Numbered from the stretch's first letter, positions 3,800 to 36,232 are shown. The stretch: 64,000 nt of DNA from Firmicutes bacterium UBA5435 (GCA_002426645.1 DIRN01000069.1:12469-76468); one strand, 5' to 3'. Notes: generated by a model not told the origin, from the sequence alone. Numbers and translations: made by a program.

Positions 3800-3800
3800 T

Positions 3801-4760: not shown

Positions 4761-4761
4761 T

Positions 4762-7793: not shown

Positions 7794-7828
7794 TTTTTTA
7801 GATATCTATATATGGTGGGGTGATAGAT

Positions 7829-8356
7829 ATGTCTGAAGGAGGAAATGTTACGGGTGGAGGACATCTAGAGGTGAACGGGACAATGATGTGGTATTACCAC
7901 ATTTGTCCTCGGGAAGTTTGGTTGATAGGGCGTCAGATCACCCCCTACAAAGAAGATGATAATATGGAGATGGGCCGATATATATCTGAAAAGTCTTATA
8001 AGCGTGAGAGGAAAGAAGTTGAGATTGGTCCAGTTAAAATTGATGTCCTCTCAGCCCGAAATGGACGGGTTGTTGTGGGCGAGATAAAAAAGAGTTCTAA
8101 ATATATGGAAAGTGCTAAGATGCAACTCTTGCTTTACCTAGATATATTACAGAAGGCAGGGATAGAAGCTGAAGGAGAACTGCGCGTTCCGTTGGAGCGA
8201 AAACGGGAAAGGGTAGTTTTGGATGAAGAAAATAAAAAGAAATTAGAGCATGCGAAACGAGATATTTTGAGAATTTTATATTTGGGCAAACCTCCAGAAC
8301 CTAAAAAGGTAAACTGGTGTACTAAATGCGCCTACAGGGAATTTTGTTGGTCATAA
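7829..8356 (+). CDS. cas4: Cas4 RecB-like nuclease with Fe-S cysteine cluster
   Basis: N-terminal Cys (ICPREVW) plus C-terminal CTKCAYREFC cluster. RecB-motif residues present. Start ATG 7829 (RBS GGTGGGG 8 nt upstream); the track ORF starts at GTG 7820. Confidence 0.8.
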   Translation: MSEGGNVTGGGHLEVNGTMMWYYHICPREVWLIGRQITPYKEDDNMEMGRYISEKSYKRERKEVEIGPVKIDVLSARNGRVVVGEIKKSSKYMESAKMQLLLYLDILQKAGIEAEGELRVPLERKRERVVLDEENKKKLEHAKRDILRILYLGKPPEPKKVNWCTKCAYREFCWS

Positions 8357-8378
8357 AGTATTCTTAGGGGGCTAAGTC

Positions 8379-9374: not shown

Positions 9375-9547
9375 AACAATAAACTTATACGTTTAAAGAA
9401 ATAAGTAGGGTCAGTATGTTTTTAGAAGCCCGTTAGAGTGAGCCTTGACAATAATTAATGACTGATGAAGTTCAAATCATAGATCTTATATTCGTCCGAA
9501 AAAATGTGTATTAAGGCAGTAGAATTTTACAATAAGAGAGGATTGAA

Positions 9548-9811
9548 ATGTTTGTTATTCTTGTATATGATATAAAAGAAAAGAGGGTCGCTAAAGTTCT
9601 TAAGAAATGTAGAGAGTATCTCTACTGGGTACAAAATTCTGTCTTTGAGGGCGAGATTACGCCCGTTAAGTTGAATATTCTTAAAGAAGAACTAAACGAC
9701 ATTATAATGTCTGATGAGGATTCGGTAATTATATATTCATTTCGTACGACAAAGTATAGTTCCATTGATATTTTAGGAGTACGGAAAGGTGGAGAGGACA
9801 ATATCCTTTGA
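9548..9811 (+). CDS. cas2: Cas2
   Basis: 87 aa, MFVILVYDI... N-terminus (the beta1 strand with catalytic Asp). RBS AGAGAGGATTGAAATG. Last cas gene before the array. Confidence 0.85.
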   Translation: MFVILVYDIKEKRVAKVLKKCREYLYWVQNSVFEGEITPVKLNILKEELNDIIMSDEDSVIIYSFRTTKYSSIDILGVRKGGEDNIL

Positions 9812-9968
9812 TTTGCATGTCGTCGGTCACCAATAGTGCAAAAACCTCTGGGGTGCGACGACAATCTCAAATTATGCATTTACCTATTTAGCAGGAGTTT
9901 TGTTTTCTAGTCACTTAGAAATTCTACAAAGTCTAACTCGACCAGAATTATTTGCCCAGCTAAAACGG
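9812..9968 (+). promoter_or_regulatory. CRISPR leader (AT-rich, between cas2 stop and first repeat)
   Basis: 157-bp AT-rich non-coding segment immediately upstream of repeat 1. The degenerate repeat sits at the opposite end of the array, so this is the leader-proximal side. Confidence 0.6.
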
Positions 9969-10455
9969 GTTTATATTCTACCTATGAGGGTTTGAAACCC
10001 ACACGGACACTCGCCCGCCCCTGACAGCATCACCGTTTATATTCTACCTATGAGGGTTTGAAACAAAATTGCTTCGTATCTTAAGTATAGCAAATCATAG
10101 TTTATATTCTACCTATGAGGGTTTGAAACTACCCCCTCTTACACACCTCCCGACTGAACTGTATTGTTTATATTCTACCTATGAGGGTTTGAAACTGACG
10201 TCATATGGAGCGCTATGATTTCGAGGCCAGGTTTATATTCTACCTATGAGGGTTTGAAACATCTAATAGGGAATGCTCTTCTTTTCGCAGTGGAGTTTAT
10301 ATTCTACCTATGAGGGTTTGAAACGGCGGAGATGCAACGCTACAAATTCCGCTACACATAGTTTATATTCTACCTATGAGGGTTTGAAACGCAGGCGCAG
10401 GCGGAGGGGTAATCATAGAAGCAATGTTTATATCCTACCTTGTATGGAAGGGCCG
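9969..10455 (+). CRISPR. CRISPR array: 8 x 30-bp repeat GTTTATATTCTACCTATGAGGGTTTGAAAC, 7 spacers (34-36 bp), last repeat degenerate
   Basis: Exact repeats at 9969, 10035, 10100, 10166, 10231, 10295 and 10361. Degenerate copy GTTTATATCCTACCTTGTATGGAAGGGCCG at 10426-10455. The GTTTGAAAC 3' end (8-nt handle) is typical of I-B repeats. Confidence 0.95.
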
Positions 10456-10849: not shown

Positions 10850-10950
10850 TAACTGAAAAGGCACATTTGCAGAAATGTAGTGTCGCAAAGCCACGGGCCT
10901 AAAATGAGAGAGGGGGAACTTTCATCATGGTAGCCGGGTTATCAGGCTGA
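10850..10950 (+). promoter_or_regulatory. Putative c-di-GMP-I (GEMM) riboswitch aptamer
   Basis: Two-hairpin architecture. Hairpin 1 is GGC(10860)-ACAU-UUGCA-GAAA(10872-5)-UGUAG-UGUCGCAAA-GCC(10892), carrying the conserved CGCAAAGCC junction and a GNRA tetraloop. Hairpin 2 is flanked by a tetraloop-receptor-like CCUAAA (10898-10903) and CAUGG (10926-10930), followed by GGUAGCCGGGUUAUCAGG. The primary sequence is close to the Vc2 GEMM-I aptamer. Confidence 0.55.
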
Positions 10951-11058
10951 GAGGAGCATGGATTTTAAGGGTCTTTTGGAGTATAATTTTGAGATTGAGT
11001 TTTGCGATCTTTTTGAAGTATTTGCAGCTTTGTGCCTTCAAGAAGGAGGCAATTATCA

Positions 11059-11385
11059 ATGAAGAATTCAAAGTTTATTAAAAAAGCTAGTGATATGATA
11101 AGGATAAAAAATATTACGAAGTTCCACAAACGCTTAATGGCTTTAGAAGAAGAGAAAAGTAGACTCCATAAAGGAATAGCAGTAATTGATGAAAGTTATG
11201 AGAAATGCGAAAAATACATGGCGCAAAATAGTAAGAAAAATTCTGAAGTGCCAGTAGATATTATGTTGTTATCACGAATAAGAAGCTTAGAAAAGAAGAA
11301 GAAAGACAAATTAGATAGGTTGGTTCAGGTAGAGAAAGAAATAGTGGCTATAAAGAGAAATATTAAAAACAGTACAATAGATTGA
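11059..11385 (+). CDS. Small basic coiled-coil protein of unknown function (108 aa)
   Basis: ATG 11059 with a perfect RBS AGAAGGAGG 9 nt upstream (the track ORF starts at GTG 11032). Lys/Glu-rich heptad-like sequence. Only ORF between the riboswitch and rpsB. Confidence 0.55.
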   Translation: MKNSKFIKKASDMIRIKNITKFHKRLMALEEEKSRLHKGIAVIDESYEKCEKYMAQNSKKNSEVPVDIMLLSRIRSLEKKKKDKLDRLVQVEKEIVAIKRNIKNSTID

Positions 11386-20560: not shown

Positions 20561-20609
20561 CAAGATTTCTGAGTGCGAGCTTATAAGGAATTAAAGGAGC
20601 GTGGTTTTG

Positions 20610-22364
20610 GTGCGGATGTCACAACTTTATGCACCCACCTTAAGGGAAGCCCCTGCAGAGGCGGAGATATCTAGTCATGCTTTAATGCTTAGAGCTGGCT
20701 TAATTCGTAAACTTGTATCTGGGGTTTATTCGTATTTACCGTTAGCTTATAGAACACTAAGAAAGATAGAAGATATTGTTCGCGAGGAAATGAATAGGGC
20801 AGGTGGTCAGGAAATACTCATGTCAGCTATCCAACCAGCGGAGCTTTGGATAGAAAGTGGACGATGGAATGACATGGGCTCTGAAATGTTTCGTCTCAAG
20901 GATAGAAATGGCAGACAGTTTTGTTTAGGTCCAACTCATGAAGAGATATTTACCTTTCTAATCAGAGATGAAGTTAGATCTTATAAACAGCTTCCTCTCT
21001 TGCTCTATCAAATACAGACGAAGTATCGTGATGAAATGCGTCCTCGATTCGGCCTTATAAGAGCCAGGGAATTCATAATGAAGGATCTATATAGCTTTGA
21101 TATTGATGAAGCTGGTTTAGAACGTAGCTATGAAAAAATGTATGAGGCATACTGCAGAACGTTCGAACGTTCTGGTTTAGAGTATGTTGTAGTTGAAGCT
21201 GATACAGGTACCATGGGTGGGAGCGCTTCTCATGAATTTATGGTAGTGACAGATACGGGTGAAGATCTAATAGCAAAATGTTCAAAATGTGGCTATGCTG
21301 CAAATATTGAGAAGGCTGAATGTGTAGCTCCCAAAGGGCTCAATGCAGATCGGGTAGAAATAGATGGTGAAAACCCTAAAGAAGTCATTACCCCTAATAT
21401 AAAGAGCATAGACGAACTATCGTCTTTCTTGGGTAAGTCTGGGAAGGATATGATTAAAACACTAATCTATTTGGCTGATGGACAACCTATAGCAGCTCTT
21501 GTGAGAGGCGACAGAGAAATCAATGAGATAAAACTAAAGAATTTTTTATCCGCGTTCACACTTGAGCTAGCGGATGAAGCTACGATAATGGAAGTTACAG
21601 GGGGGCCGTTAGGATTTTCAGGACCTATAGGGTTAACGGGAATTAAGTTAGTAGCAGATGAAGAAGTACCTTTTATTCAGGACGCAGTAGTAGGCGCTAA
21701 CCAAAGAGATAAGCATTTAATTAACGTAAACTACGGAAGGGATTTTAGCGCAGATAACATCGCTGATATACGTAAGGCAGTGGAAGGCGATGCATGCTCT
21801 AAGTGTGGTGAGCCCATTGAAGTGGTCAGAACTATTGAGGTAGGGCATATATTTAAGTTAGGTACAAAATATACTAGTGCTCTAGGCGCTACTTTTTTAG
21901 ATGAAAATGGTCGTGAGCGCCCTATGATAATGGGCTGTTATGGTATAGGAGTTACACGTACCATGGCAGCTATAATTGAGAAAAATCACGATGAGAAGGG
22001 TATAATCTGGCCGTTTTCAGTTGCGCCCTTTCACGTTACTATAGTTCCCATTAATATAAAGAATAGTGAGCAAAAGGCTGCTGCCTTTAAGCTATATAAA
22101 GAGTGTTTAAACAATGGAGTTGAAGCTGTTATAGATGACAGAGATGAACGATCAGGTGTGAAGTTTAATGACGCTGATCTTATAGGGTTCCCTATTCGTA
22201 TTACAGTAGGCCCTAGATCCCTCAAAGAAGGCAAGGTGGAGATTCGACTAAGACAGAGCGGCAAGGAGATTCAAGTGCCTTTAGGATCAGCGGTGGAAAA
22301 GATTAAGACGTTGATCAAGGAGGCTGTCATATATGAAGATCGCTGTAGTGATTCCGGCATATAA
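20610..22364 (+). CDS. proS: Prolyl-tRNA synthetase (bacterial type with INS editing domain)
   Basis: RMSQLYAPTLREAPAEAEI matches the ProS N-terminus (E. coli [20 protein letters not shown]). Class II motifs present, about 585 aa. Start GTG 20610 or 20601, or ATG 20616. Confidence 0.9.
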   Translation: MRMSQLYAPTLREAPAEAEISSHALMLRAGLIRKLVSGVYSYLPLAYRTLRKIEDIVREEMNRAGGQEILMSAIQPAELWIESGRWNDMGSEMFRLKDRNGRQFCLGPTHEEIFTFLIRDEVRSYKQLPLLLYQIQTKYRDEMRPRFGLIRAREFIMKDLYSFDIDEAGLERSYEKMYEAYCRTFERSGLEYVVVEADTGTMGGSASHEFMVVTDTGEDLIAKCSKCGYAANIEKAECVAPKGLNADRVEIDGENPKEVITPNIKSIDELSSFLGKSGKDMIKTLIYLADGQPIAALVRGDREINEIKLKNFLSAFTLELADEATIMEVTGGPLGFSGPIGLTGIKLVADEEVPFIQDAVVGANQRDKHLINVNYGRDFSADNIADIRKAVEGDACSKCGEPIEVVRTIEVGHIFKLGTKYTSALGATFLDENGRERPMIMGCYGIGVTRTMAAIIEKNHDEKGIIWPFSVAPFHVTIVPINIKNSEQKAAAFKLYKECLNNGVEAVIDDRDERSGVKFNDADLIGFPIRITVGPRSLKEGKVEIRLRQSGKEIQVPLGSAVEKIKTLIKEAVIYEDRCSDSGI

Positions 22365-22956
22365 TGAGGAAAAAACTATAGGAGATGTTCTTAATGTAGT
22401 CAAAGAAGTCGAGACTATTGATGAGATAATAGTAGTTGACGACGGTTCTTTGGATCATACTGCGGAAATAGCAAGACTTGAAGGGGTTAAAGTTATTTCT
22501 TTAGAAAAGAACGTTGGCAAGGGTGGTGCTGTAAAGGTAGGATTTAATAGTACAGATGCCGAGATCATTGTTCTCCTGGATGCTGATCTTTTAAATCTTT
22601 CTCCAAGGCATATTAATGCACTCTTAGAACCTGTAATAAATGGTAGTGCTGATATGACCCTTGGAATCTTTGGAAATGGTCGTTTCCGCACTGATTTTGC
22701 TCAGAAAGTAGCCCCTACTTTAACGGGTCAGAGAGCAATTAAACGGGAATTATTGGAGGCCACAGCCCATCTTGATCTTGCTAGATTCGGAGTTGAGAAA
22801 GCCCTTACTGAATGTGCAAAAGAGAAAAAGGCGAATGTGGTTCCTGTTAAACTAGACGGGGTCTCTCACGTCACAAAGGAAGAAAAATTAGGCTTTTGGG
22901 AGGGGTTTAAAGCTAGGGTAAGAATGTATTGGGAAATATTAAAGGCCATGCACTAG
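22333..22956 (+). CDS. Family 2 glycosyltransferase (dolichyl/polyprenyl-phosphate sugar transferase-like)
   Basis: MKIAVVIPAYNEE...VVDDGSLDHT...DADL are GT2 motifs. RBS AAGGAGG 9 nt upstream. Overlaps the proS 3' end by 32 nt. Confidence 0.75.
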   Translation: MKIAVVIPAYNEEKTIGDVLNVVKEVETIDEIIVVDDGSLDHTAEIARLEGVKVISLEKNVGKGGAVKVGFNSTDAEIIVLLDADLLNLSPRHINALLEPVINGSADMTLGIFGNGRFRTDFAQKVAPTLTGQRAIKRELLEATAHLDLARFGVEKALTECAKEKKANVVPVKLDGVSHVTKEEKLGFWEGFKARVRMYWEILKAMH

Positions 22957-22971
22957 AGGAGAGAATAGCAA

Positions 22972-25900
22972 ATGTCTGAACTATATGTCATTGAGCCTGA
23001 TAATGATGGAAGTAGTCTCTCAAGGCTTGTAGAGATGTCAGGCGTATCAGGTAAATTAAAAGAACTTTTACACGATGCAAGAATAGATAAGGTATTGGTA
23101 AATGTAAGAGATAGGATTTGGGAGGTACACATTCGGACTAATAATCCTCTTCTTTCCGTAGACGGTAAGACCTTTAAAAAGAGTATCACCCTTCCTGTAA
23201 AGGGGCTTAAAGGATGCATATTTCAGATATCAAGGGATCCACGAGGTCTTTCGTTAGAGGAAGCTCTCAAGATTGAGTGGGAGAATATCCTTACAGAGTT
23301 AAAAGGTAGGCAACCAGCTATAAATGGATTGCTTTCTATGTCGCGTTGGAGCATCGCTCATGAGGGGCCAGAAGAAGTTTTGGTAGAGGTCGTTGATGAC
23401 ATAGGGGTTACATTCCTTAGTGATAAAGGATGCGCTGAATTGATGGAAGCCCTCATACTAGAGAGACTTGGTAAAAAGGTAAAGGTGCGTTTGATCGTAG
23501 GCGACTTTGACGATGAATTCGAAGAGATACTTTCAGAACAGGAATTAATAGAGAAGAATGAAGTCGCACAGGCACTAAAAGATCAGGGTAATAGGTCCAA
23601 GTCAGCTTTTGTTGGAAACAAGGGTATAATCTTAGGGCGTCCTATTAATGTTGAACCAGAGAAGATAAGACCCATAAATGATATAACAGAAGAAGAAAAT
23701 AATATTATCACTGAAGGGATGATATTCTCCAAGGATGTTCGTTTATTGAAGAGCGGACGCACCTTGGTTACTTTCGGCATTACTGATTTTACAAATTCAA
23801 TAGAAGTAAAGGTCTGGGAGAATGAGAAGGAAAACAAGGCAAGTGAAGCATGCCAGGAAGATTCATGGGTACGAATAAAAGGCAATGTTCAGACAGATAA
23901 GTTTTCACAGGAACTGACTCTACAACCATCTGATATCCAACTCATTGAGCCTTACGAAAGAGTGGATTCTGCTACTGAGAAACGTATTGAACTCCATTTG
24001 CATACTAAGATGAGTGCTATGGATGCAGTTGTTGATGTTGAAAGGGCAGTACATCAATGTGCAAAGTGGGGACATCCTGCTATTGCAATAACTGATCATG
24101 GTGTTGTACAGTCACATCCTGCTGCCTTTGATGCAGGTCAAAAATATGGGGTTAAGATACTCTATGGTTTAGAAGGATACCTCGCTAACTCAATAGATTC
24201 CGCCAAGGACTACCATATTATAATTATCGCAAAGAATGATATAGGCCTGAGGAATCTATACAAACTGGTAAGCATCTCACATCTTGATGACTTTCATCGT
24301 CACCCTAGGATACTTAGGGATAAACTAGTGGAATTGCGAGAGGGCCTTATCCTTGGATCAGCTTGTGAGGCAGGAGAGCTATACCAGGCTATTATTTCTG
24401 GTAAATCTGAAGACGAGACAGATGAGATAGCTAATTTCTATGATTACCTAGAGATTCAACCTATAGGAAATAATGAATTTATGTTACGGAATGGGCAGGT
24501 TACATCGGAAGATGAGTTAAAAGATTTTAATCGTAAAATATTTGAGATTGGAAAGAAATTAGGTAAGCCAGTTGTAGCTACTAGTGACGTGCACTTTTTA
24601 GATCCTCATGATGAAGTTTTTCGTAGGATCCTTATGGCTGGTCAAGGCTATGAAGATGCAGATCTCCAACCTCCTTTATACCTTCGCACAACAGATGAGA
24701 TGCTAGAAGAACTATCTTACCTTGGAGAAGAAGGCGCTAAAGAAGCTGTTATCACCAATCCTAAGCTCATAGCCGATATGGTTCAAGACTTGAGGCCTGT
24801 CCCTGATAAACTTTATACTCCTAAGATAGACGGAGCTGAGGAACAGATTCAAACTATGGCATATAATAAGGCTAAGGAGTTATATGGAGATACTCTCCCA
24901 GAAATAGTAGAAGCACGTCTGAAAAAAGAATTGAAGTCTATAATTGAGAATGGCTTTTCAGTTATATACTTAATCGCTCATAAGCTGGTAACTAAGTCTT
25001 TATCCGACGATTATCTAGTCGGTTCTAGAGGCTCAGTTGGTTCATCTTTCGTGGCGACTATGTGCGATATAACAGAGGTAAATCCTTTACCCCCTCATTA
25101 TCGTTGTGGAAACTGTAAGTACTCTGAGTTCTCTAAAGATACAAAGATAATGTCAGGATTTGATTTACCAGATAAAGCCTGTCCAATATGTGATGAGAAG
25201 TTACATAAAGACGGACAGAACATACCTTTTGAGGTTTTCCTAGGCTTTAAAGGAGATAAGGTACCAGACATTGATCTTAACTTCTCTAGTGAATATCAGG
25301 AGCGGATTCATAAGTTTACTGAAGAGCTCTTTGGTTCTGAACACGTGTATAGAGCGGCCACGCTCTCTACTTTAATGGATAGGACTGCATATGGTTTTGT
25401 CAAGAAGTACTTTGAGGAACGCACGAATCATATTAGAACAGTAGAAATAAATAGACTGGTAAAAGGGTGCTGTGGAGTTAAACGTACTACAGGGCAACAC
25501 CCTGGGGGCCTTATGATAATACCCCAGGATAGAGATGTACATGAATTTACTCCTCTTCAGTATCCTGCAAACGATAAAAGATCTAATACTATTACTACGC
25601 ATTTTGAGTATGGTTCATTTAAAGAGAGGCTTCTCAAACTTGATCTTTTAGGGCATACTGATCCAACTCAATTACGTATGTTACAAGATATAACAGGTGT
25701 TGAAGTAAAGAAAATTCCCCTAGATGATCCTGCAACCATGAAGATCTTTTCTGGTCTGGAATCACTCGGTATAGACCGTGAATATGCTGGAGGAAAAGTA
25801 GGAACATTAGGAGTCCCAGAATTCGGAACGCCATTCGTTCGTCAGATGCTTGAGGCTACTTTGCCAACGACTTTTGCAGAACTCATAAGGATAAGTGGTC

Positions 25901-26685
25901 TTTCTCATGGTACAGATGTGTGGCTTAATAATGCGGCAGACCTTATAGCGAATAAGACTGCTACGCTTGCTGATGTTATTGCTATGAGAGACGATATAAT
26001 GAACTACCTCATATCTTGTGGCGTTGAACCATCTAAGGCTTTTAAAATTATGGAGAATGTCAGGAAAGGAAGGGGACTCTCTGCAGAGGATGAAGAAGCC
26101 ATGAAGGCTGCTGAAGTTCCAGAATGGTACTGTGAATCAGCAAAGAAAATAAAGTATCTTTTCCCCAAGGCCCATGCTGCGGCCTATGTAACCATGGCCT
26201 TTAGGCTAGCTTACTTTAAGGTTCATTATCCAGCGCCATTTTACGCCAGTTACTTTACTGTAAAAGCGGATGAATTTGATGTGAACATGGCTACTATGGG
26301 CAAAGAAGAACTCCGTGCAGAATTGGAAAAACTACGTGCTAAGGGTAATGATGCGACTCCTAAAGAAGCTGGTCTCTTGGAAGCTATGGAGGTAGCTTTA
26401 GAAGCCATTACAAGAGGTGTAACCTTTCTTAACGTTGATCTTCAGAAGTCCCATGAGTCGAAATTCCAGGTTAAAGGGGATAGTATACTCCCTCCTTTTG
26501 TTACTCTCCCGGGCTTAGGCACTAGTGCAGCAAAGAATATAGTAATTGAAAGGGAGAAGAAACCTTTTACTTCAATAGAGGATTTAAAGACGCGAGCTAG
26601 GCTGAGTAAAACTGTGATAGAGATCTTAAAGGAAAGCAACGTCTTAACTGACTTACCAGAGAGTAATCAATTGACACTATTTTAG
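22972..26685 (+). CDS. polC: DNA polymerase III PolC-type alpha subunit, but lacking the intra-PHP 3'-5' exonuclease domain
   Basis: PolC N-terminal domain, OB fold, PHP (ELHLHTKMSAMDAV...ITDHGVVQ), Zn module (CGNCKY...CPICDEK), palm/fingers, C-terminal ...NQLTLF. Near-colinear with B. subtilis PolC except that the exonuclease block is absent (1237 aa against about 1430). Confidence 0.9.
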   Translation: MSELYVIEPDNDGSSLSRLVEMSGVSGKLKELLHDARIDKVLVNVRDRIWEVHIRTNNPLLSVDGKTFKKSITLPVKGLKGCIFQISRDPRGLSLEEALKIEWENILTELKGRQPAINGLLSMSRWSIAHEGPEEVLVEVVDDIGVTFLSDKGCAELMEALILERLGKKVKVRLIVGDFDDEFEEILSEQELIEKNEVAQALKDQGNRSKSAFVGNKGIILGRPINVEPEKIRPINDITEEENNIITEGMIFSKDVRLLKSGRTLVTFGITDFTNSIEVKVWENEKENKASEACQEDSWVRIKGNVQTDKFSQELTLQPSDIQLIEPYERVDSATEKRIELHLHTKMSAMDAVVDVERAVHQCAKWGHPAIAITDHGVVQSHPAAFDAGQKYGVKILYGLEGYLANSIDSAKDYHIIIIAKNDIGLRNLYKLVSISHLDDFHRHPRILRDKLVELREGLILGSACEAGELYQAIISGKSEDETDEIANFYDYLEIQPIGNNEFMLRNGQVTSEDELKDFNRKIFEIGKKLGKPVVATSDVHFLDPHDEVFRRILMAGQGYEDADLQPPLYLRTTDEMLEELSYLGEEGAKEAVITNPKLIADMVQDLRPVPDKLYTPKIDGAEEQIQTMAYNKAKELYGDTLPEIVEARLKKELKSIIENGFSVIYLIAHKLVTKSLSDDYLVGSRGSVGSSFVATMCDITEVNPLPPHYRCGNCKYSEFSKDTKIMSGFDLPDKACPICDEKLHKDGQNIPFEVFLGFKGDKVPDIDLNFSSEYQERIHKFTEELFGSEHVYRAATLSTLMDRTAYGFVKKYFEERTNHIRTVEINRLVKGCCGVKRTTGQHPGGLMIIPQDRDVHEFTPLQYPANDKRSNTITTHFEYGSFKERLLKLDLLGHTDPTQLRMLQDITGVEVKKIPLDDPATMKIFSGLESLGIDREYAGGKVGTLGVPEFGTPFVRQMLEATLPTTFAELIRISGLSHGTDVWLNNAADLIANKTATLADVIAMRDDIMNYLISCGVEPSKAFKIMENVRKGRGLSAEDEEAMKAAEVPEWYCESAKKIKYLFPKAHAAAYVTMAFRLAYFKVHYPAPFYASYFTVKADEFDVNMATMGKEELRAELEKLRAKGNDATPKEAGLLEAMEVALEAITRGVTFLNVDLQKSHESKFQVKGDSILPPFVTLPGLGTSAAKNIVIEREKKPFTSIEDLKTRARLSKTVIEILKESNVLTDLPESNQLTLF

Positions 26686-26845: not shown

Positions 26846-27880
26846 TTGAGAAGGTTTAAGTCCACAGTTCCTTTCTTTCTCATAACAGGCATTTTGGTCA
26901 TATCAGCTATTACATGGACAAAATCAAGCTTAGAGTCAAAGGTCACTTTTGATTCTAAATTAGTTATGGATACTATGGTTACTATAAAGGTAATAGGAGA
27001 AAGGGAAGAAAAGGCACGTAAAGCTATAGATGATGCTTTTGATGCCATATCCCGAATGGACAGGCTTTTAAGTTTATATGTTAAAGGGAGCGATGTGACG
27101 CGAATCAATGAAGCATCAGGGGAAGGATATGTGGAAGTAAGCTCTGATGCATTGAAGGTCATTAAAGCTGCCATTAGCTATTCCAGGCTTACAGAAGGTG
27201 CCTTTGATCCTAGCATAGGCCCTCTCATCCACCTTTGGAACTTTGATACTGGTAAAGGTCATTTGCCAGACCCTGAGGAAGTCATCTGGGAACTAGCTAA
27301 GGTGGATTATAGAAAGATTATAGTAAATGATGATAAGAGAGAGGTAATGCTAAGTGATGAAGGCATGAGGCTCGATCTAGGGGGAGCAGCTAAAGGGTAT
27401 GCAGCAGATGTGGCATTAGAAGTCTTGCAAAGACACGGTATAAAGTCAGCCCTTATTGATGTAGGTATGAGTAGTATGCGGGTGCTTGGTCTTAAACCTA
27501 AAGGTGAAGTATGGAGAATAGGTATTAGCCACCCTAGAGATCCTCAGAAATATCTTGGGATCTTGCTACTTCAAAGCGGAGAAGCTATAGGGACTTCCGG
27601 CGATTACCAGCAATTCTTCATGGAAGATGGTAATAGATACTTTCATATATTAGATCCAAGGACAGGATGGCAGCCTAAGGGCACCACGAGCGTTACTATT
27701 CTAACAGATAATGGATTAGACGCTGATATCCTTTCTACGGCCATCTTTGTTTTAGGACCAGATGAAGGTATGAAATTTGTTGAAGAACAAGATGGGGTCG
27801 AGGCGGTGATGGTCACTGAGAACGGAGAAATTTTGCTCTCCTCAGGACTCAAAGGAAGATTCAAGGCAGCAGGTGAATGA
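26846..27880 (+). CDS. apbE: FAD:protein FMN transferase (ApbE family), secreted/lipoprotein-like
   Basis: N-terminal signal/TM segment. ApbE family motifs (DLGGAAKGYAAD, GTSGDY, H.LDPRTG). Confidence 0.85.
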   Translation: MRRFKSTVPFFLITGILVISAITWTKSSLESKVTFDSKLVMDTMVTIKVIGEREEKARKAIDDAFDAISRMDRLLSLYVKGSDVTRINEASGEGYVEVSSDALKVIKAAISYSRLTEGAFDPSIGPLIHLWNFDTGKGHLPDPEEVIWELAKVDYRKIIVNDDKREVMLSDEGMRLDLGGAAKGYAADVALEVLQRHGIKSALIDVGMSSMRVLGLKPKGEVWRIGISHPRDPQKYLGILLLQSGEAIGTSGDYQQFFMEDGNRYFHILDPRTGWQPKGTTSVTILTDNGLDADILSTAIFVLGPDEGMKFVEEQDGVEAVMVTENGEILLSSGLKGRFKAAGE

Positions 27881-28415
27881 TACTGGGTATATTAAAAAAT
27901 TGCTATATATATCTTTTCTTATCTCTATTGGGATAGTCCTCCATTTAATAGAAGGAATGATAAGCGGATTCGGGCTTTCATTAATAGTTCCAGGTATTAA
28001 GTTGGGTTTAGCAAATATAGTAACTCTTATAACCATTGTTTTATTTGGGTTAAGAGAGGCTCTATGTGTTGCAACCCTTCGCTCTTTGCTTGGGTCTTTA
28101 CTATCGGGGAGATTTTTAACTTTGAGTTTTTACATGTCTACAGGGGGAGGTATAGTTAGCGCATTTTTTATGGGATTTATATACTCTAGATTTCCGGATC
28201 TATTTAGTCTTATAGGCATTAGTGTTCTAGGGGCAGTGATACATAATTTGACTCAAATTATGATCTTTTATATATGGGCAGGTCATTTTGGAGTATTCTT
28301 CTATGCTCCATATCTTACTCTTGTGGCTATACCCACTGGTTTTTTCGTTGGTTTGGTGACAATATATGTAACGAAATACTTTAGAAGATCATATAAAAGA
28401 AATAAATTATTTTAA
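27873..28415 (+). CDS. Membrane protein of the Gx-transporter / heptaprenyl-diphosphate-synthase component I family (PF07456)
   Basis: 180-aa polytopic protein overlapping the apbE stop by 8 nt. ApbE plus this family is a recurrent Firmicutes gene pair. Confidence 0.55.
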   Translation: MNDTGYIKKLLYISFLISIGIVLHLIEGMISGFGLSLIVPGIKLGLANIVTLITIVLFGLREALCVATLRSLLGSLLSGRFLTLSFYMSTGGGIVSAFFMGFIYSRFPDLFSLIGISVLGAVIHNLTQIMIFYIWAGHFGVFFYAPYLTLVAIPTGFFVGLVTIYVTKYFRRSYKRNKLF

Positions 28416-28469
28416 CCCTATAAGGTAGAAAGATTCTGAGGTTTCTTGGAGAGGAGGAATTATTAATCC

Positions 28470-28727
28470 ATGTTACAATCAAGCAGAATAAAACCTATCT
28501 GGCTCTTCATATTCATATTATTTATTGGAATAGTAATTGGCAGTATAATTGGGGAGCTTCTGGGAGATTATATTCCAGTCTTATCAAAGGGTCCGACACT
28601 TCGGCTTGCACCTCAGACTCTAAGTGTAGGCGATATGGCTAGCTTAACCTTTGGATTCATGCTTCGTCTAAATACATTTACAATTGTCGGAATTATTCTT
28701 GCTATAGCTATTCTAAGATATTTATAG
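28470..28727 (+). CDS. DUF4321-like small membrane protein
   Basis: 85 aa with two TM segments and a GELLG motif. Usual position upstream of maf/radC/mreB in Firmicutes. Confidence 0.5.
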   Translation: MLQSSRIKPIWLFIFILFIGIVIGSIIGELLGDYIPVLSKGPTLRLAPQTLSVGDMASLTFGFMLRLNTFTIVGIILAIAILRYL

Positions 28728-28768
28728 TTTTGAAGGGAGGAATTCACCTGAATCTGGTGGATTAGATT

Positions 28769-29362
28769 GTGAAGAGAATCGTTTTAGCTTCCACTTCGCC
28801 GCGTAGAAGGGAACTTCTTAATCAAATAGGATTATCTTTTGATATTATCCCAAGCTCTACTTTGGAAAAAGATATAGACTCTTCTGATCCTATTCAGGGG
28901 TCAATAGAGGCCGCCGAAATAAAAGCATTGAATGTTGCTGCTAAATTAAGTGGCGATGTATTAGTAATCGCTGCTGATACCGTTGTAGTTATAGATGGTA
29001 TGGTCTTGGGAAAACCTAAAGATAAGGATGAAGCTAAATCTATCCTCAGGCGCTTAAGTGGAAGAGTTCATGAAGTTATCACTGGATTTTTTGTTATTAA
29101 TGTCTTAACGGATAAGAGAAGTTCAGGTTACGAAAGGACAAGAGTATGGTTTCGTCAGTTAACCGAGGAGGAGATAACCTCTTATGTAGAATCTGGCGAA
29201 CCTATGGACAAGGCTGGAGCATATGGTATACAAGATTTAGGGTCTTTACTAATTAAGAGGATAGAGGGGTGTTACTTTAATGTTGTAGGGCTTCCGATAA
29301 GCTCTCTCTGCGAAGTTTTAAAGGACTTCGGGGTAAATCCTTTACTTAGGATAAATAGTTAA
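28769..29362 (+). CDS. maf: Maf nucleoside-triphosphate pyrophosphatase (septum formation protein)
   Basis: ILASTSPRRRELL N-terminus. 197 aa. Confidence 0.9.
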   Translation: MKRIVLASTSPRRRELLNQIGLSFDIIPSSTLEKDIDSSDPIQGSIEAAEIKALNVAAKLSGDVLVIAADTVVVIDGMVLGKPKDKDEAKSILRRLSGRVHEVITGFFVINVLTDKRSSGYERTRVWFRQLTEEEITSYVESGEPMDKAGAYGIQDLGSLLIKRIEGCYFNVVGLPISSLCEVLKDFGVNPLLRINS

Positions 29363-29421
29363 TTTCAATGAATGGTTGGGGGTTTTTTAAAATTTTTCAT
29401 AAGAGAAAGAGGGCGTTTTAT

Positions 29422-30144
29422 ATGATGGATTCTAATACCTATGATTACCGCTTCACAATTAAGGATATGCCTGAGGAGGAAAGGCCTAGGGAGCGTTTAT
29501 TGAAATTTGGACCCGATGTTCTAACTACAAGTGAGCTTCTTGGGATTCTCATAAGAACAGGTACACGTTCTAATACCGCGGTAGAATTGGGAAATAAGCT
29601 TTTAGCTCGCTTTGGTGGATTAAAAGGAATAGTCAAAGCAGATATTCATGAACTTACAGTAGTGGAGGGAATTGGGTTAGCAAAAGCTATTCAGATTAAA
29701 GCGGCTATAGAATTAGGTAGGCGAGTAATAGCCTTAGATAGAGAGAGTCGTTCTTCTATTAGAACCCCATCAGATATTGCAGACTTACTCATGTTTGACA
29801 TGCGTTATCTCGATAAAGAGCACTTTAAGAGTGTCCTCTTAAATACGCGAAATGAGGTACTTGATATAGTTACCATATCTATAGGTAGCCTTGACGCATC
29901 TTTAGTACATCCACGTGAGCTTTTTAAGGATGCTATCAGGCGTAGTTGTGCTTCTGTTATCCTTGTACATAATCATCCTAGCGGAGATCCTACTCCTAGC
30001 ATGGAAGATATAAAACTAACTAGACGCCTTAAAGAAGGTGGAGCTTTATTAGGCATAAGAGTTCTTGATCATATAATTATTGGAGATAATAGATTTTTAA
30101 GCCTTCGAGAGTTGGGTCTCTTAGATAAGCGAAGTAAAGAGTAG
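29422..30144 (+). CDS. radC: RadC-like JAB-domain protein
   Basis: HhH N-terminal region plus the HNHPSGDPTPS JAMM motif. Start ATG 29422 (RBS AGAGAAAGAGGG); the track ORF starts at 29368. Confidence 0.85.
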   Translation: MMDSNTYDYRFTIKDMPEEERPRERLLKFGPDVLTTSELLGILIRTGTRSNTAVELGNKLLARFGGLKGIVKADIHELTVVEGIGLAKAIQIKAAIELGRRVIALDRESRSSIRTPSDIADLLMFDMRYLDKEHFKSVLLNTRNEVLDIVTISIGSLDASLVHPRELFKDAIRRSCASVILVHNHPSGDPTPSMEDIKLTRRLKEGGALLGIRVLDHIIIGDNRFLSLRELGLLDKRSKE

Positions 30145-30187
30145 ACTTTATAATTTGAAGGTGTAAGGCGAGAAAGGGGAACGCCAT

Positions 30188-31255
30188 ATGATATTAGATT
30201 TTATAGCGGGTAAATTCTCTAAGGATATGGGTATTGACCTAGGTACTGCAAATACCCTTGTTTACGTTAGAGGTAAAGGCTTGGTACTTCAAGAGCCAAC
30301 AGTAGTAGCTGTCCATAAGAACACGGGTGAGATTTTTGCTGTGGGAAACGAAGCTAAACAAATGGTGGGAAGAACACCTGGAAATATAGTTGCCATTAGA
30401 CCCCTCAAGGACGGTGTTATTGCTGATTTCGATATAACTGAAAAGATGTTGCGTTATTTTATCTCTCGTGCCCATAGACGTAAGACTTTAGTGAGGCCTC
30501 GAGTAATTGTTGGTATTCCCACAGGTGTTACAGAGGTTGAAAAACGAGCGGTTCTAGATGCTGCTTTACAGGCTGGAGCAAGAGAGGCATATTTAATCGA
30601 AGAGCCTATGGCATCAGCTATAGGTGCAGGGCTTACAGTTGCTGAACCTAGAGGGAATATGATTGTGGACATAGGTGGAGGCACTACAGAAGTAGCTGTT
30701 ATTTCTTTAGGAGGTATTGTCACGTCGCGTTCAATAAGAGTTGCAGGCAATGAAATGGACGAAGCGATTGTTCAACATATTCGTAGGGCTTATAACTTAA
30801 TGATCGGAGAGCGAACTGCTGAAGATGTTAAAACAGGAGTCGGTTTTGCTAAGATCTTTGAGGATGAAGAGATCCCAGAGGATATGAGAGAAATAGAGGT
30901 TAGAGGCAGAGATCTTGTAACAGGACTTCCTAAGACTATAGTTGTTACGGCAGAAGAGATCGAAAAGGCTCTATCCGAGCCTGTAAGGGATATAATTGAT
31001 GCTGTAAGAGTAACCCTTGAAAGAACTCCTCCAGAATTAGCAGCTGATATAATGGATCGAGGGATAATTATGAGTGGTGGAGGTTCCCTTTTGAGGAATC
31101 TTCCTAGACTCTTAAGCAGTGATACGGGAATGCCTGTTCATCTTGCAGAACATTCTTTAAGTTGTGTGGCAATGGGAACAGGTAAGGCTATAGAACACTT
31201 TGAAGATTATAAACGTACTGTCAGTGCCTTAACATCTCAGAAGAGGATCAATTGA
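30188..31255 (+). CDS. mreB: Rod-shape determining actin homolog MreB
   Basis: [13 protein letters not shown] phosphate-1 motif. Full-length actin-fold ATPase. Confidence 0.95.
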
Positions 31256-31285
31256 TGGAATAACGAGAATAGGAGGCTGAACTGT

Positions 31286-32119
31286 GTGTTCCAGGGGGTA
31301 AGGTTTAAACGTATCTTAGTAAGTATAATTTTTATCCTCATCCTTATAGTATCTATACATGTCACCTCGCATGAGCGCGAGGAGGTTACTTTTTTGGAGA
31401 GGATTATACGTGATACCATATCCCCCTTACAATCTCTTTTGAATAGCACTGGAGCACGAGTCTCTGATTATTTTAATACAGTTATACATGTTAAGAAGAT
31501 AAAGGAGGAGAATCTCCACCTCACGAAAGAAGTTTCTCAGCTTCTTGCTGAGAATAATGAGTTAAGAAGGGCCCAAAAAGAAAATGAGCGTCTCAGGCGG
31601 ATGTTAGGGTTTAAGGAAGAGACCCCGTATCAGCTTCTTCCTGCTAAGGTAATAGCCCGTGATCCATCGAACTGGACAGACACGATAATTATCGGTGTTG
31701 GGGAAAAGGATGGCGTGAAGAAGAATATGGCTGTTGTGACTGAATTGGGTTTAGTAGGGCATATAATATCAGTCACAAATTATACAGCAAGGGTTCTTTT
31801 ACTTATAGATTCACGGAGCGCTGTAGGGGCCAGATTAGAGAGATCTAGAGACTTAGTTATAGTTGAAGGCCTTGAAGAGGAGGAGACTCATTTCTGGATG
31901 AAACCTTTAATAAGGGATGTAGATGTAAAAGAAGGGGATAGGGTAGTTTCATCTGGTTTAGGAGGCATCTACCCCGGAGAGCTCCTTATCGGAGAAGTCA
32001 TTCAGGTCAAGACAGATGAATACAATGTGACAAAGCATGCTTTAATTAAACCCTTTGTGAATTTTATGAAGCTGGAAGAAGTCTTTGTCATTATAGGCCC
32101 TTTAGAGGAAGAGTTTTAG
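31286..32119 (+). CDS. mreC: MreC
   Basis: N-terminal TM, coiled-coil (LTKEVSQLLAENNELRR) and C-terminal beta domain. Follows mreB. Confidence 0.85.
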   Translation: MFQGVRFKRILVSIIFILILIVSIHVTSHEREEVTFLERIIRDTISPLQSLLNSTGARVSDYFNTVIHVKKIKEENLHLTKEVSQLLAENNELRRAQKENERLRRMLGFKEETPYQLLPAKVIARDPSNWTDTIIIGVGEKDGVKKNMAVVTELGLVGHIISVTNYTARVLLLIDSRSAVGARLERSRDLVIVEGLEEEETHFWMKPLIRDVDVKEGDRVVSSGLGGIYPGELLIGEVIQVKTDEYNVTKHALIKPFVNFMKLEEVFVIIGPLEEEF

Positions 32120-32169
32120 TAAAATAGATGGCAATTCGTGGGTCTAAAGTAGTGAAAGAGGGATGCTAT

Positions 32170-32682
32170 ATGAAATTCGCTGTGTGGGTAGTCGCCTTCT
32201 TAATGAATCTAGTCTTTCAGTCAACATTATTTACTTTCTTTCAGATTAAAGGGGTAAGGCCTGATCTCCTTATAATTTTGGTTATATTCGTTGCATTATT
32301 CAGAGGACCAGTGGAAGGTGGCAAAGCCGGTTTTTTAGCTGGCCTTTTAGAAGATTTGGTTGTAGGCCAGTTCATAGGGATGAATGCATTCATTAAGATG
32401 TTCGTAGGCATAGTAGTTGGTCTTTTTGAAAAACGTCTTTATAGAGAAAACCTTCTTATACCAACTGCTATGGTTTTTATAGGAACCTTTATTGCAGGAA
32501 CTCTCTTTATTTTATTATTTAACTCTTTTGGACCAGATATTAAATGGATAGAAGGACTCTATTCTTTGGTAATGCCTACGTGTCTTTATAACACTATAAT
32601 AGGGTTCTTGATATATAAACCCATATATAGACTCCATAAACATTTTAAAGGTAAGAGGTGGTCGTTTAGGCAAATTTTTTAA
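32170..32682 (+). CDS. mreD: MreD
   Basis: About 170-aa polytopic membrane protein after mreC. Start ATG 32170 (RBS AAAGAGGGA); the track ORF starts at 32128. Confidence 0.7.
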   Translation: MKFAVWVVAFLMNLVFQSTLFTFFQIKGVRPDLLIILVIFVALFRGPVEGGKAGFLAGLLEDLVVGQFIGMNAFIKMFVGIVVGLFEKRLYRENLLIPTAMVFIGTFIAGTLFILLFNSFGPDIKWIEGLYSLVMPTCLYNTIIGFLIYKPIYRLHKHFKGKRWSFRQIF

Positions 32683-32712
32683 CCTCGTATCTATATAGTG
32701 CAGGTGAATTTC

Positions 32713-34518
32713 ATGATAAGTGAAAAAGAGTTAACATCGAGGATTAGAATTTTTGGAATACTTGTACTCTTTCTCTTTCTCGTACTCTTTTTAAGACTTT
32801 GGTATCTACAGATTGCCAGAGGCGATGAATATGATGTAATGTCAAAAAATAATAGGGTAAGGCTCCTTTCGCTGGAAGCACCAAGGGGTCTTATTCGTGA
32901 CAGGAATGGGGAGATCCTTGCAACGAGTAGATTTGCACCTACAGTTTCTATAGTACCAATGGAGTGGAAGAACTCTAACCATGTGATTGAGGTCTTAAGT
33001 GAAATTATCCAGATGAGCACTGAAGATATTGAGAAGAAGATAGCTGCTTCGGCTTGGAGACCCTTTGAACCTGTTCGTATAAAAATAGATATATCACCTG
33101 AGGTGGTAATAAAGATAGAGGAGCGCCGAATAGATCTACCTGGCGTTATCATAGAGCAATTACCAGTTCGTCAGTATGTGCTAGGCAACTTTGCCACTCA
33201 TATATTAGGATATATTGGCGAGATAAATGAAGAGGAACTAAAGGCTTTAAAGGGCAAAGGATATAGCATAGGAGATCTATTTGGTAAAATAGGGGTAGAG
33301 AAGACCTTTGAAGAGAATTTAAAGGGTATAAAGGGCATACAGCAGGTAGAGGTGAATGCTCTTAGTAGACCTGTTAGGATCTTAGGTGAAGAGAGTCCAA
33401 TCCCAGGTAATGATATTGTACTTACTATAGATAGACGTCTTCAGGAGATAGTGGAAGTTGCTCTAGAAGAGGGGCTCATCGATGCCAGGAAAGATCCTAG
33501 ATATAAGGATGCAAAGGGTGGAGCCATTATTGTAATGGATGTACGGAATGGAGAAATTTTAGCTATGGCTAGTGCTCCTGATTATGATCCTAATCTCTTC
33601 GTTGGGGGCATATCTGTAACTAATTGGAACAAGCTCATAGAAGATCCGTACCGTCCTTTATATAACCGGGTCATGAGCGGAGAATACCCCCCTGGATCCA
33701 CCTTTAAGATAATTACTGCTTTTGCTGCACTTGAGGAAGGGCTTGTGGATTTGAATGATAAGTTTTATTGTACAGGAAGTGATCCTACAATTCCAGATAA
33801 GAAGTGCGCTATTTGGTATTCAACTGGCAGTGGTCATGGTGAGCAGAACCTAATAGAGTCAATAAAGAATTCATGTAATATAACTTTTTATGAATTAGGA
33901 AAGCGTATAGGCGTTAATAAACTAGCTGAATATGCTAGGGACTTTGGTTTTGGGAGCCCTACAGGGATTAATGTCTCACCTGGGGATAAGGGTGGACTAG
34001 TTCCAACTAAAGAGTGGAAGTTGGAGAAGAGATTTCTACGCTGGGTAGAGCCAGCTGAAACCATGGATTTCTCCATAGGGCAGGGTTTCTTTAACGCTAC
34101 TTTACTTCAGATAGCGGCTGCTTACGCTACGATAGCCAATGGCGGAACCCTTTATAAACCTTTAATAGTCAAGGCCATCAATTCTTCGACAGGAGATTCC
34201 TTACGCAGATTTGAACCTCAGGTAGTTAGGGAGATCCATATGTCACCTATGACTGAGATGATCCTAAAAGAGGGCATGCGACGTGTTACTGTTGATGGTA
34301 GTGCAAGGGAAGTATTTGCAGATTTCCCCATATCAACTGCAGGAAAAACCGGAACTGCCGAAGTAAGTGGTGCAGATAACCATGCTTGGTTCGCTGCTTT
34401 TGCACCTGCAGAGTCGCCAGAAGTAGTTGTTATAGTGCTCGTTGAGAATGGTGGATATGGGGGTAAGGTAGCTGCTCCTATAGCACGGAAGGCTTTAGAA
34501 GCATATTTTCGATTGTAA
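32713..34518 (+). CDS. mrdA: Penicillin-binding protein 2 (elongasome transpeptidase)
   Basis: N-terminal TM, PBP dimerisation domain, transpeptidase motifs STFK, SCN and KTGTA. Confidence 0.9.
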   Translation: MISEKELTSRIRIFGILVLFLFLVLFLRLWYLQIARGDEYDVMSKNNRVRLLSLEAPRGLIRDRNGEILATSRFAPTVSIVPMEWKNSNHVIEVLSEIIQMSTEDIEKKIAASAWRPFEPVRIKIDISPEVVIKIEERRIDLPGVIIEQLPVRQYVLGNFATHILGYIGEINEEELKALKGKGYSIGDLFGKIGVEKTFEENLKGIKGIQQVEVNALSRPVRILGEESPIPGNDIVLTIDRRLQEIVEVALEEGLIDARKDPRYKDAKGGAIIVMDVRNGEILAMASAPDYDPNLFVGGISVTNWNKLIEDPYRPLYNRVMSGEYPPGSTFKIITAFAALEEGLVDLNDKFYCTGSDPTIPDKKCAIWYSTGSGHGEQNLIESIKNSCNITFYELGKRIGVNKLAEYARDFGFGSPTGINVSPGDKGGLVPTKEWKLEKRFLRWVEPAETMDFSIGQGFFNATLLQIAAAYATIANGGTLYKPLIVKAINSSTGDSLRRFEPQVVREIHMSPMTEMILKEGMRRVTVDGSAREVFADFPISTAGKTGTAEVSGADNHAWFAAFAPAESPEVVVIVLVENGGYGGKVAAPIARKALEAYFRL

Positions 34519-34624
34519 GCAGGAATATTACGATAAATGCCGAATTTATCATAAAGAGTCCCTTTAAATTGAGTTTTAAAATAATGAATAGTAAATGCGG
34601 TTAATTCTTTGGAGGAATTAAGAA

Positions 34625-35332
34625 ATGTCAAAAGAAGTTGAGGAGAACCAAATTCAGAAAAGTGAAAAGAGTAAAGAAGGTCTCCCTAAGGAGGTCGTGG
34701 ATTTTAAAGGCACACGGCAAGGACTTTTGATTCTCTTGGATGGTCAGGAAGACTTTAAAGTCATAAAGAAACGATTGAAGGAGAAGTTTGAAACATCAAG
34801 AGATTTTTTTACAAGATCAGAGGTCATTGTAGATATCGGTGATCGGGTACTTACTAATGAAGAAACGAGAGAGCTTGCCAGATTAATCCGAGAAGAATGT
34901 GGACTTAGGTGCCGAAGGATCGGGGACAAGATCGTTGATGATGTGGAAGACGAAGAGGAAGGTGCAAATCAGCCTGAAAAGGAATTGGAAACCCTCCTTA
35001 TAAAAAGAACTATCCGCTCTGGGCAACGGCTTTATCACGACGGAAATATAGTTATACTTGGCGATGTAAACCCTGGTGCTGAGGTAGTTGCTACAGGAGA
35101 TATTATTATCATAGGAACCTTCAGAGGGGTGGCTCATGCTGGAGCAGGAGGAAATGAGGATGCTATAATTGTTGCAACTTCTTTAAGACCAACCCAAATA
35201 AGGATAGCTGATTTCATCACACGCGCACCAGATGATGAGCGGTATGGAGCAGCTAACCTAACAGAAATAGCTAGGATAAAAGGAGGATATGTAGTTATTG
35301 AAGCCTACACGAGCGGAGTTTCTTTATTATAG
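34625..35332 (+). CDS. minC: Septum site-determining protein MinC
   Basis: C-terminal beta-helix MinC domain (..IILGDVNPGAEVVATGDIIIIG..). Precedes minD. Confidence 0.85.
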   Translation: MSKEVEENQIQKSEKSKEGLPKEVVDFKGTRQGLLILLDGQEDFKVIKKRLKEKFETSRDFFTRSEVIVDIGDRVLTNEETRELARLIREECGLRCRRIGDKIVDDVEDEEEGANQPEKELETLLIKRTIRSGQRLYHDGNIVILGDVNPGAEVVATGDIIIIGTFRGVAHAGAGGNEDAIIVATSLRPTQIRIADFITRAPDDERYGAANLTEIARIKGGYVVIEAYTSGVSLL

Positions 35333-35365
35333 TAATATATAGGGTGCGAAGGAGGTGTTTCTTGC

Positions 35366-36178
35366 ATGGCAGGAAGGACTATTGTAATAACATCTGGAAA
35401 AGGTGGAGTAGGCAAGACCACAACCACTGCTAATTTAGGTGCTGGTTTAGCGCTACTTGGTAAGAAAGTCGCGGTGATAGATGCAGATATAGGTCTTCGT
35501 AACTTAGACCTTGCATTAGGATTGGAAAATAGGATCGTATATCATCTAGTGGATGTAGTAGAAGGGAACTGTAAATTAAGACAAGCTCTTATTAAAGATA
35601 AAAGATTTGATAATCTATCCCTTCTCCCCGCTGCTCAGACCAGGGAAAAGGACTCAGTTACTCCAGAACAGATGAAACGACTCTGTGATGAATTGAGACT
35701 CGAATTCGATTACGTTCTCATGGATTCTCCAGCTGGTATAGAACATGGTTTTAGGAACTCTGTTGCAGGAGCAGATGAGGCTATAATTGTAACAACCCCA
35801 GAGATGGCTGCAGTAAGAGATGCTGATAGGATAGTGGGGATCCTAGAGGCGATGGAGATAGAGCATCCGCGACTTTTGATTAATAGGATGAAGATGGACA
35901 TGGTTAGGCGCAACGACATGATGGATATTGAGGATATCTTAGAGATCCTTGCTATAGATCTTATAGGTGTTGTTCCGTACGACGAAGGGATAATAGTTTC
36001 AGCAAACAAAGGGGAGCCTGTTGTCTTTAATTCTCGTTCCATAGCAGGGCAGGCATATAAGAATATCGTGCGAAGGTTAGAAGGCGAGGATATTCCTATA
36101 ATGTCTCTTAATGGGGCACCTACGTTTCTTGAACGATTAAAGACTTTATTTTCTATATCGAAAAGTAAGAGTAGTTGA
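35366..36178 (+). CDS. minD: Septum site-determining ATPase MinD
   Basis: Deviant Walker A ITSGKGGVGKTT. C-terminal amphipathic helix. Confidence 0.95.
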   Translation: MAGRTIVITSGKGGVGKTTTTANLGAGLALLGKKVAVIDADIGLRNLDLALGLENRIVYHLVDVVEGNCKLRQALIKDKRFDNLSLLPAAQTREKDSVTPEQMKRLCDELRLEFDYVLMDSPAGIEHGFRNSVAGADEAIIVTTPEMAAVRDADRIVGILEAMEIEHPRLLINRMKMDMVRRNDMMDIEDILEILAIDLIGVVPYDEGIIVSANKGEPVVFNSRSIAGQAYKNIVRRLEGEDIPIMSLNGAPTFLERLKTLFSISKSKSS

Positions 36179-36232
36179 TTGTTATATGCGTCGGCTTCCC
36201 AACGATATATTTCAGGGAAGGGAGAGATCAAG

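Follow-up and report, generated by a model that had tools for sequence, protein, structure and literature searches.

Canonical PolC, a replicative DNA polymerase, carries a DEDDh exonuclease of the DnaQ type within its PHP domain; in Enterococcus faecium this exonuclease comprises 211 residues and lies between PHP strands 3 and 4 (PMC12592400). PolC proteins without it (hereafter exo-less) were surveyed by Timinskas et al. in Nucleic Acids Research (online 2013; PMC3919608). They made up 6% of PolCs, occurred only in Clostridia and Negativicutes, and were always paired with DnaE1 (the PolC+DnaE1 system, within which 16% of PolCs were exo-less), with the exception of one extra copy in Thermotogae. 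The exo-less PolC is already known as a kind, though from bioinformatics alone. Here we analyze the polC gene in a 64,000-nucleotide (nt) stretch of DNA from Firmicutes bacterium UBA5435 (GCA_002426645.1, DIRN01000069.1:12469-76468), hereafter the window. A first-pass annotation, made from the DNA itself, had singled out this gene as encoding a PolC from which the proofreading exonuclease is cleanly absent. We find that its product almost certainly is a genuine PolC and belongs to this known exo-less kind, and we propose that its PHP domain may supply proofreading in cis.

The polC gene of the window encodes 1237 amino acids (aa) in a single open reading frame (ORF), whose ATG follows a GGAG-type ribosome-binding site at a distance of about 9 nt. 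Over its whole length the protein exceeded the cut-offs of both NCBIfam PolC equivalogs, scoring 1565.2 bits against NF001688 (cut-off 873) and 1414.5 bits against TIGR01405 (cut-off 1043.45). The ORF is uninterrupted and colinear with PolC; the first-pass annotation had called it uninterrupted and near-colinear with B. subtilis PolC. Both equivalogs aligned in two pieces, the second of which placed residues 407–1237 on profile positions 608–1444. The Pfam PHP match formed one stretch, covering positions 1–148 of the 164-position model. A Pfam scan of the PolC ORF yielded no RNase_T (PF00929) match, even at E ≤ 1. By direct alignment, full-length E. faecium PolC (9QPC) matched window PolC in two stretches, and the engineered Geobacillus kaustophilus PolC-ΔNΔExo (3F2B) aligned in one stretch with residues 229–1237.

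Window PolC and its best 120 database hits were aligned with MAFFT (n = 121). Whether the deletion is lineage-wide had been raised as a question in the first-pass annotation, and this alignment answers it: 70 of the 121 PolCs lacked the exonuclease insert, and 51 contained it. The exo-less relatives included proteins of Thermosinus, Sporomusa, Pelosinus, Veillonellaceae, Heliorestis, Paradesulfitobacterium, Zhaonellaceae and Peptococcaceae. The spacer between two of the PHP metal ligands, E401 and H415, measures 13 aa in window PolC; it was 12–32 aa in the exo-less PolCs versus 212–214 aa in the exo-containing ones. The two halves of the PHP domain are joined directly, as had been claimed. From the 51 exonuclease inserts of the alignment we built a custom hidden Markov model (HMM). 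This exo HMM found no match among all six-frame ORFs of at least 40 aa in the window, the polC ORF included (best E-value, 0.15), and on loci L001–L007 its matches were confined to the polC genes of L002, L003 and L006, all of which contain the exonuclease. The search of the ORF for the RNase_T/DnaQ family was empty, as the first-pass annotation had expected. These data confirm that window PolC is a full-length PolC without the DnaQ/DEDDh exonuclease insert.

Two details of the first-pass annotation required correction. It had stated that no D-x-E motif occurs anywhere in the protein. There are in fact four chance D-x-E tripeptides, at residues 180, 355, 935 and 1040; the misstatement is immaterial because none of them sits in the context of an Exo motif. 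It had also placed the quoted junction peptide at about 24173–24260, whereas this peptide spans nt 24157–24273, the linker proper occupying 24175–24213.

We modeled residues 229–1237 with AlphaFold2, using a 42-sequence alignment. The model had a mean predicted local distance difference test (pLDDT) score of 86.3 and a predicted template modeling (TM) score of 0.76, and it contained an OB β-barrel at model residues 14–97. E401 and H415 were predicted to lie on consecutive β-strands (model residues 167–177 and 186–192) connected by a short loop with pLDDT of about 89–90. Compared with G. kaustophilus PolC-ΔNΔExo (3F2B), the model gave TM scores of 0.95/0.96 and a root-mean-square deviation of 2.3 Å. 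Against full-length E. faecium PolC (9QPC), the query-normalized TM score was 0.95 and the target-normalized score 0.79; the latter is low because the exonuclease domain of 9QPC has no partner in the model. In its predicted fold, this natural protein amounts to the ΔExo construct that crystallographers had engineered.

Outside the missing insert, window PolC retains the parts of a replicative polymerase. The OB fold precedes the PHP domain, which is the domain order of PolC, and a helix-hairpin-helix (HhH) module and a C-terminal clamp-binding motif are also present; homologues end in QLSLF or QMALF variants of this motif. The N-terminal region is divergent, with matches to Pfam DNA_pol3_a_NI (18.5 bits; cut-off 22) and DNA_pol3_a_NII (25.6 bits; cut-off 26.3) that both fall slightly below threshold, and the NI and NII domains of PolC are poorly conserved according to the literature. 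D766 and D768 were invariant in the 121-sequence alignment, and D766, D768 and D891 were invariant in a 42-sequence alignment (A1); by homology, we take these three residues as the putative catalytic triad of the polymerase. The cysteines of the PolC zinc finger (C712, C715, C737 and C740) were likewise invariant in alignment A1.

If the enzyme does not proofread with a DnaQ domain, its PHP domain is a candidate. The set of nine PHP metal ligands is complete (H342, H344, D351, H376, E401, H415, C465, D539 and H541), reading HHDHEHCDH; Timinskas and Venclovas use the motif HHDHEH[C/H]DH for the “active” PHP (PMC12926913). The nine ligands were invariant in the alignment, in 70/70 exo-less and 51/51 exo-containing PolCs. 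At ligand 8, window PolC has Asp (ATSDVHFL) versus Asn in G. kaustophilus PolC (ATGNVHYL), and a passage in PMC5636811 cites the latter enzyme as being without PHP exonuclease activity owing to this Asn. Proofreading by Mycobacterium tuberculosis DnaE1 relies on exactly the set of nine residues present in window PolC, with three zinc ions (PMC5636811). In bacteria with the PolC+DnaE3 system, the PHP sites of PolC are “often inactive”, and the intrinsic DnaQ domain is described as making up for an inactive site (PMC12926913). Taken together with this literature, the intact PHP site of every exo-less PolC in the alignment fits a complementarity between two proofreaders. Nor need loss of the insert harm synthesis, since the engineered Staphylococcus aureus PolC-ΔNΔExo polymerizes fast, with a kpol of 330 per s (PMC3656037).

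We propose that the trinuclear metal site of the PHP domain would carry out 3′-5′ proofreading in cis, as it does in Mycobacterium DnaE1 and Thermus Pol III, and that PolC proofreading may be backed up by a DnaE1 in the same cell, which would have a PHP site of its own. The first-pass annotation had listed proofreading by a stand-alone DnaQ, PHP activity, or an unusual fidelity regime as consequences of the deletion. Among these, PHP activity is the best supported because all nine ligands are present; the implied unusualness did not hold up, the deletion being lineage-wide, recurrent and published in 2013. The interpretation offered there is partly supported, and its factual core was right.

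Several points weigh against PHP proofreading. We know of no PolC for which PHP exonuclease activity has been demonstrated. The nine ligands are equally invariant in the exo-containing clostridial relatives; therefore, their conservation is not specific to loss of the exonuclease, and it could reflect a structural or another catalytic role. In addition, a comparison of the alignment between independent exo-less clades revealed no convergent substitutions common to them and rare in exo-containing PolCs at stringent thresholds, and at relaxed thresholds only weak exo-less-shared residues appeared, such as A420 against V. On balance, we consider it about as likely as not that the PHP site of window PolC proofreads. 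To the explanation as a whole, a housekeeping exo-less PolC of known kind that proofreads in cis by its PHP domain, we assign a probability of roughly 60%.

A neighbor-joining tree (100 bootstrap replicates, 1142 well-occupied columns) was computed from the same set of sequences, which is a biased sample of the top 120 hits and has no outgroup. Exo-less sequences were monophyletic in 0/100 replicates. A split with 100% support placed window PolC, eight other exo-less and 28 exo-containing sequences on one side, and the large exo-less clades of Negativicutes, Heliobacteria and Desulfitobacteriia on the opposite side. The group of window PolC joined an exo-containing, Halanaerobiales-like clade at 76%. 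Together, the split and this grouping suggest a separate loss of the exonuclease. Given the neighbor-joining method, the biased sample and the lack of an outgroup, it is only suggestive that the insert may have been lost at least twice independently at the same loop. More tentatively still, the insert may have been excised precisely, repeatedly and only where the PHP site is intact, in which case the PHP domain by itself would suffice for cis proofreading in a PolC-type replicase. If this is true, exo-less lineages have returned to the proofreader of ancestral bacteria, and the “hallmark” exonuclease of PolC is dispensable.

Proofreading could instead be supplied in trans, by a separate DnaQ/epsilon-like DEDDh exonuclease docked on PolC or on the clamp, comparable to epsilon on Escherichia coli DnaE. 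Such an arrangement is known for DnaE1 systems, and mycobacteria employ DnaQ alongside PHP (PMC11348249). Stand-alone DnaQ homologues average more than three per bacterial proteome (PMC12926913), so candidates probably exist somewhere in the genome. Against this stands the neighborhood of the gene: there was no DEDDh domain among the six-frame ORFs of the window, no RNase_T annotation among the genes called in the 10 kb fetched on each side (reaching about 8 kb past the window’s left end and about 8.4 kb past its right end), and no such exonuclease within 10 kb on either side of polC at three further exo-less loci. Moreover, a trans factor is unnecessary because the PHP site is intact. We consider proofreading in trans unlikely.

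One nearby protein of 184 aa bears the label “ExoX-like”. It was rejected as an exonuclease: only a 30-aa C-terminal motif matched (PF20600, 26.6 bits), and the protein has no DEDDh domain. Its gene (L012, 2996–3550) precedes the first letter of the window by about 5 kb and is flanked by a CvpA-like gene on one side and by genes for a U32 peptidase and mutS2 on the other. In Bacillus subtilis, polX occupies this position.

A second alternative is that PolC has been demoted, with DnaE1 and its own PHP proofreader performing bulk replication and the exo-less PolC serving as a non-proofreading enzyme in a specialized or minor role. Timinskas et al. raised this idea themselves, since all exo-less PolCs occur in clostridial genomes where DnaE1 is by every hallmark a self-sufficient replicase, and some Clostridia have DnaE1 only (PMC3919608). 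Window PolC, however, has kept its catalytic aspartates, zinc finger, HhH module, clamp motif and housekeeping locus, and we saw no sign of relaxed constraint on it. In addition, the GC skew of the window is strongly positive (about +0.2) and its genes are almost all co-oriented, a signal confounded by coding-strand bias. Strong GC skew together with gene co-orientation is typical of PolC-driven replication. We regard demotion of this PolC as rather improbable.

We think it very improbable that this gene is an accessory paralogue with a canonical, exo-containing polC elsewhere in the genome. One Thermotogae genome does hold an extra exo-less PolC and one Clostridia genome has two PolCs, but nearly all surveyed PolC+DnaE1 genomes have a single one (PMC3919608). 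Synteny makes a paralogue unlikely as well. The gene order rpsB-tsf-pyrH-frr-uppS-cdsA-ytvI-dxr-rseP-ispG-proS-[GT2]-polC is a classical Firmicute housekeeping cluster, and an exo-less polC occupies the same canonical position after proS in three other exo-less lineages: L008 (a 695-kb contig), L009 (a 317-kb contig) and L010 (the Sporomusa carbonis chromosome). Thus, polC of the window is a genuine, positionally orthologous housekeeping copy. Finally, the chance of an assembly collapse, about which the first-pass annotation had cautioned, or of a decaying pseudogene is negligible: the deletion preserves the reading frame, and its ends coincide exactly with domain boundaries; the catalytic residues are all intact and the fold is confidently predicted; the identical protein occurs on at least six contigs from three sources of independent assemblies (NCBI, ENA and Logan), one of them a 118-kb contig from a fermentation metagenome (ERZ922851 / SRR1562006, PRJNA260163); and the same 13-residue junction is carried by the closest relative, a 70%-identical orthologue (P0001; JGI and Logan), with the same junction in 69 further homologues.

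The coordinates of polC, its domains and its two upstream neighbors are collected in Table 1. The GT2 gene, which stands between proS and polC, shares 32 nt with the 3′ end of proS. We also considered its 207-aa ORF, close in size to the missing domain, as a split-off exonuclease and rejected it; the translation is a GT2 glycosyltransferase, and all of its NCBIfam matches are glycosyltransferases. A GT2 gene of 207 or 208 aa stands at the same place in L008 (9332–9955) and L009 (9298–9924), the nearest long-contig relatives, and is absent from that place in Sporomusa; it may be a lineage marker. On the 3′ side of polC, the window contains apbE, a gene resembling heptaprenyl-diphosphate-synthase component I, maf, radC, mreBCD, pbp2 and minCDE (26846–36200). 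The related loci have rimP-nusA-ylxR-L7Ae-infB after polC; the window differs from them by a local rearrangement directly 3′ of polC.

Table 1. Position of polC, its domains and its upstream neighbors in the window.
Feature	Coordinates (nt)	Strand	Basis
proS, canonical upstream neighbor of polC	20601..22364	+	NCBIfam NF006625, 810 bits
GT2 glycosyltransferase gene, 207 aa, between proS and polC	22333..22956	+	NCBIfam
polC, 1237 aa, naturally without DnaQ-type exonuclease insert	22972..26685	+	Single uninterrupted ORF
Divergent PolC N-terminal region (NI/NII-like), residues 1–228	22972..23655	+	Weak Pfam matches
OB fold, residues 248–325	23713..23946	+	Pfam tRNA_anti-codon, 36.6 bits
Uninterrupted PHP domain, nine metal ligands	23989..24594	+	Pfam PHP, residues 340–490
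13-residue loop GYLANSIDSAKDY at the usual exonuclease site (about 200 aa in canonical PolC)	24175..24213	+	DNA read directly
Pol III alpha core (palm, thumb, fingers)	24844..26088	+	DNA_pol3_alpha, 191 bits; finger domain, 85.8 bits
Tandem helix-hairpin-helix DNA-binding module, residues 1149–1230	26416..26661	+	Pfam HHH_6, 47.8 bits
β-clamp-binding motif QLTLF, C-terminal	26668..26682	+	C-terminus ...ESNQLTLF

The host is clearly a member of the Bacillota and is not Bacilli-like; it represents a deep, uncultured lineage sampled in a fermentation metagenome. The identity of its ProS to any database entry does not exceed 65%, and the best named relatives (58–61%) are Limnochordia, Thermoanaerobacter and Caldanaerobacter. 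The window also encodes the sporulation protein YtvI. The approximately 80 kb read, made up of the window and the fetched flanks, holds no dnaE gene.

Elsewhere, the window contains a type I-B-like CRISPR-Cas locus (1009–10390) with cas6, cas8b (TM1802 family), cas7, cas5, cas3, cas4, cas1 and cas2 (about 9548–9811). The CRISPR array follows cas2 (9969–10390) and consists of seven copies of the 30-nt repeat GTTTATATTCTACCTATGAGGGTTTGAAAC at a spacing of 64–66 nt. Between this array and rpsB lies a c-di-GMP-I riboswitch (RF01051, 65 bits; 10850–10946, + strand), directly downstream of which is an ORF of 117 aa without a Pfam match (11032–11385). An RNase E/G family protein (40947–42641, + strand) has extra matches to a KH-like domain and to a C-terminal TRAM domain. 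The GC skew of the + strand is very strong and uniform across the window (+0.13 to +0.25) and falls to +0.06 only at 56–60 kb, the site of three minus-strand genes; AT skew is mostly positive, and genes are nearly all co-oriented.

Exo-less PolCs matter for how the PolC+DnaE1 replisomes of Clostridia and Negativicutes divide labor and proofread. A natural ΔExo-like PolC whose PHP metal site is complete offers a convenient test of PHP proofreading beyond DnaE1, and the question is also relevant to PolC-targeted antibiotics and to models of mutation rate in anaerobes. The window adds one more, uncultured example, and what is new here is the host lineage; for experiments, cultured Negativicutes whose PolC has this architecture offer a better starting point.

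The known systems close to window PolC include the other natural exo-less PolCs, such as those of Sporomusa, Thermosinus, Pelosinus and Heliorestis. Like them it has the architecture N-terminal domain-OB-PHP-Pol3-HhH without Exo, the junction between PHP ligands 5 and 6, an intact nine-residue site and a polC gene in the same chromosomal locus beside proS; it differs from these named members in that its identity to them is only about 51–53%. Compared with canonical PolC, as in B. subtilis and E. faecium (9QPC), it is colinear outside the insert and has the zinc finger, catalytic aspartates and clamp motif in common, and it is without the approximately 200-aa DEDDh exonuclease. The engineered PolC-ΔNΔExo proteins (3F2B; S. 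aureus, PMC3656037) had the exonuclease removed at the same loop. The engineered constructs also lack the N-terminal domain, whereas window PolC is a natural protein that retains its N-terminal region together with every PHP ligand; its 13-aa linker is about 12 residues shorter than that of the 3F2B crystal construct. M. tuberculosis DnaE1 and Thermus Pol III alpha belong to a different group (about 20% identity and a TM score of about 0.65 to window PolC), and exonuclease activity has been demonstrated for these enzymes and for no PolC known to us. With them window PolC has in common an uninterrupted PHP barrel that carries the HHDHEH[C/H]DH trinuclear-metal motif, and a short loop beside the active site, where PolC normally carries DnaQ.

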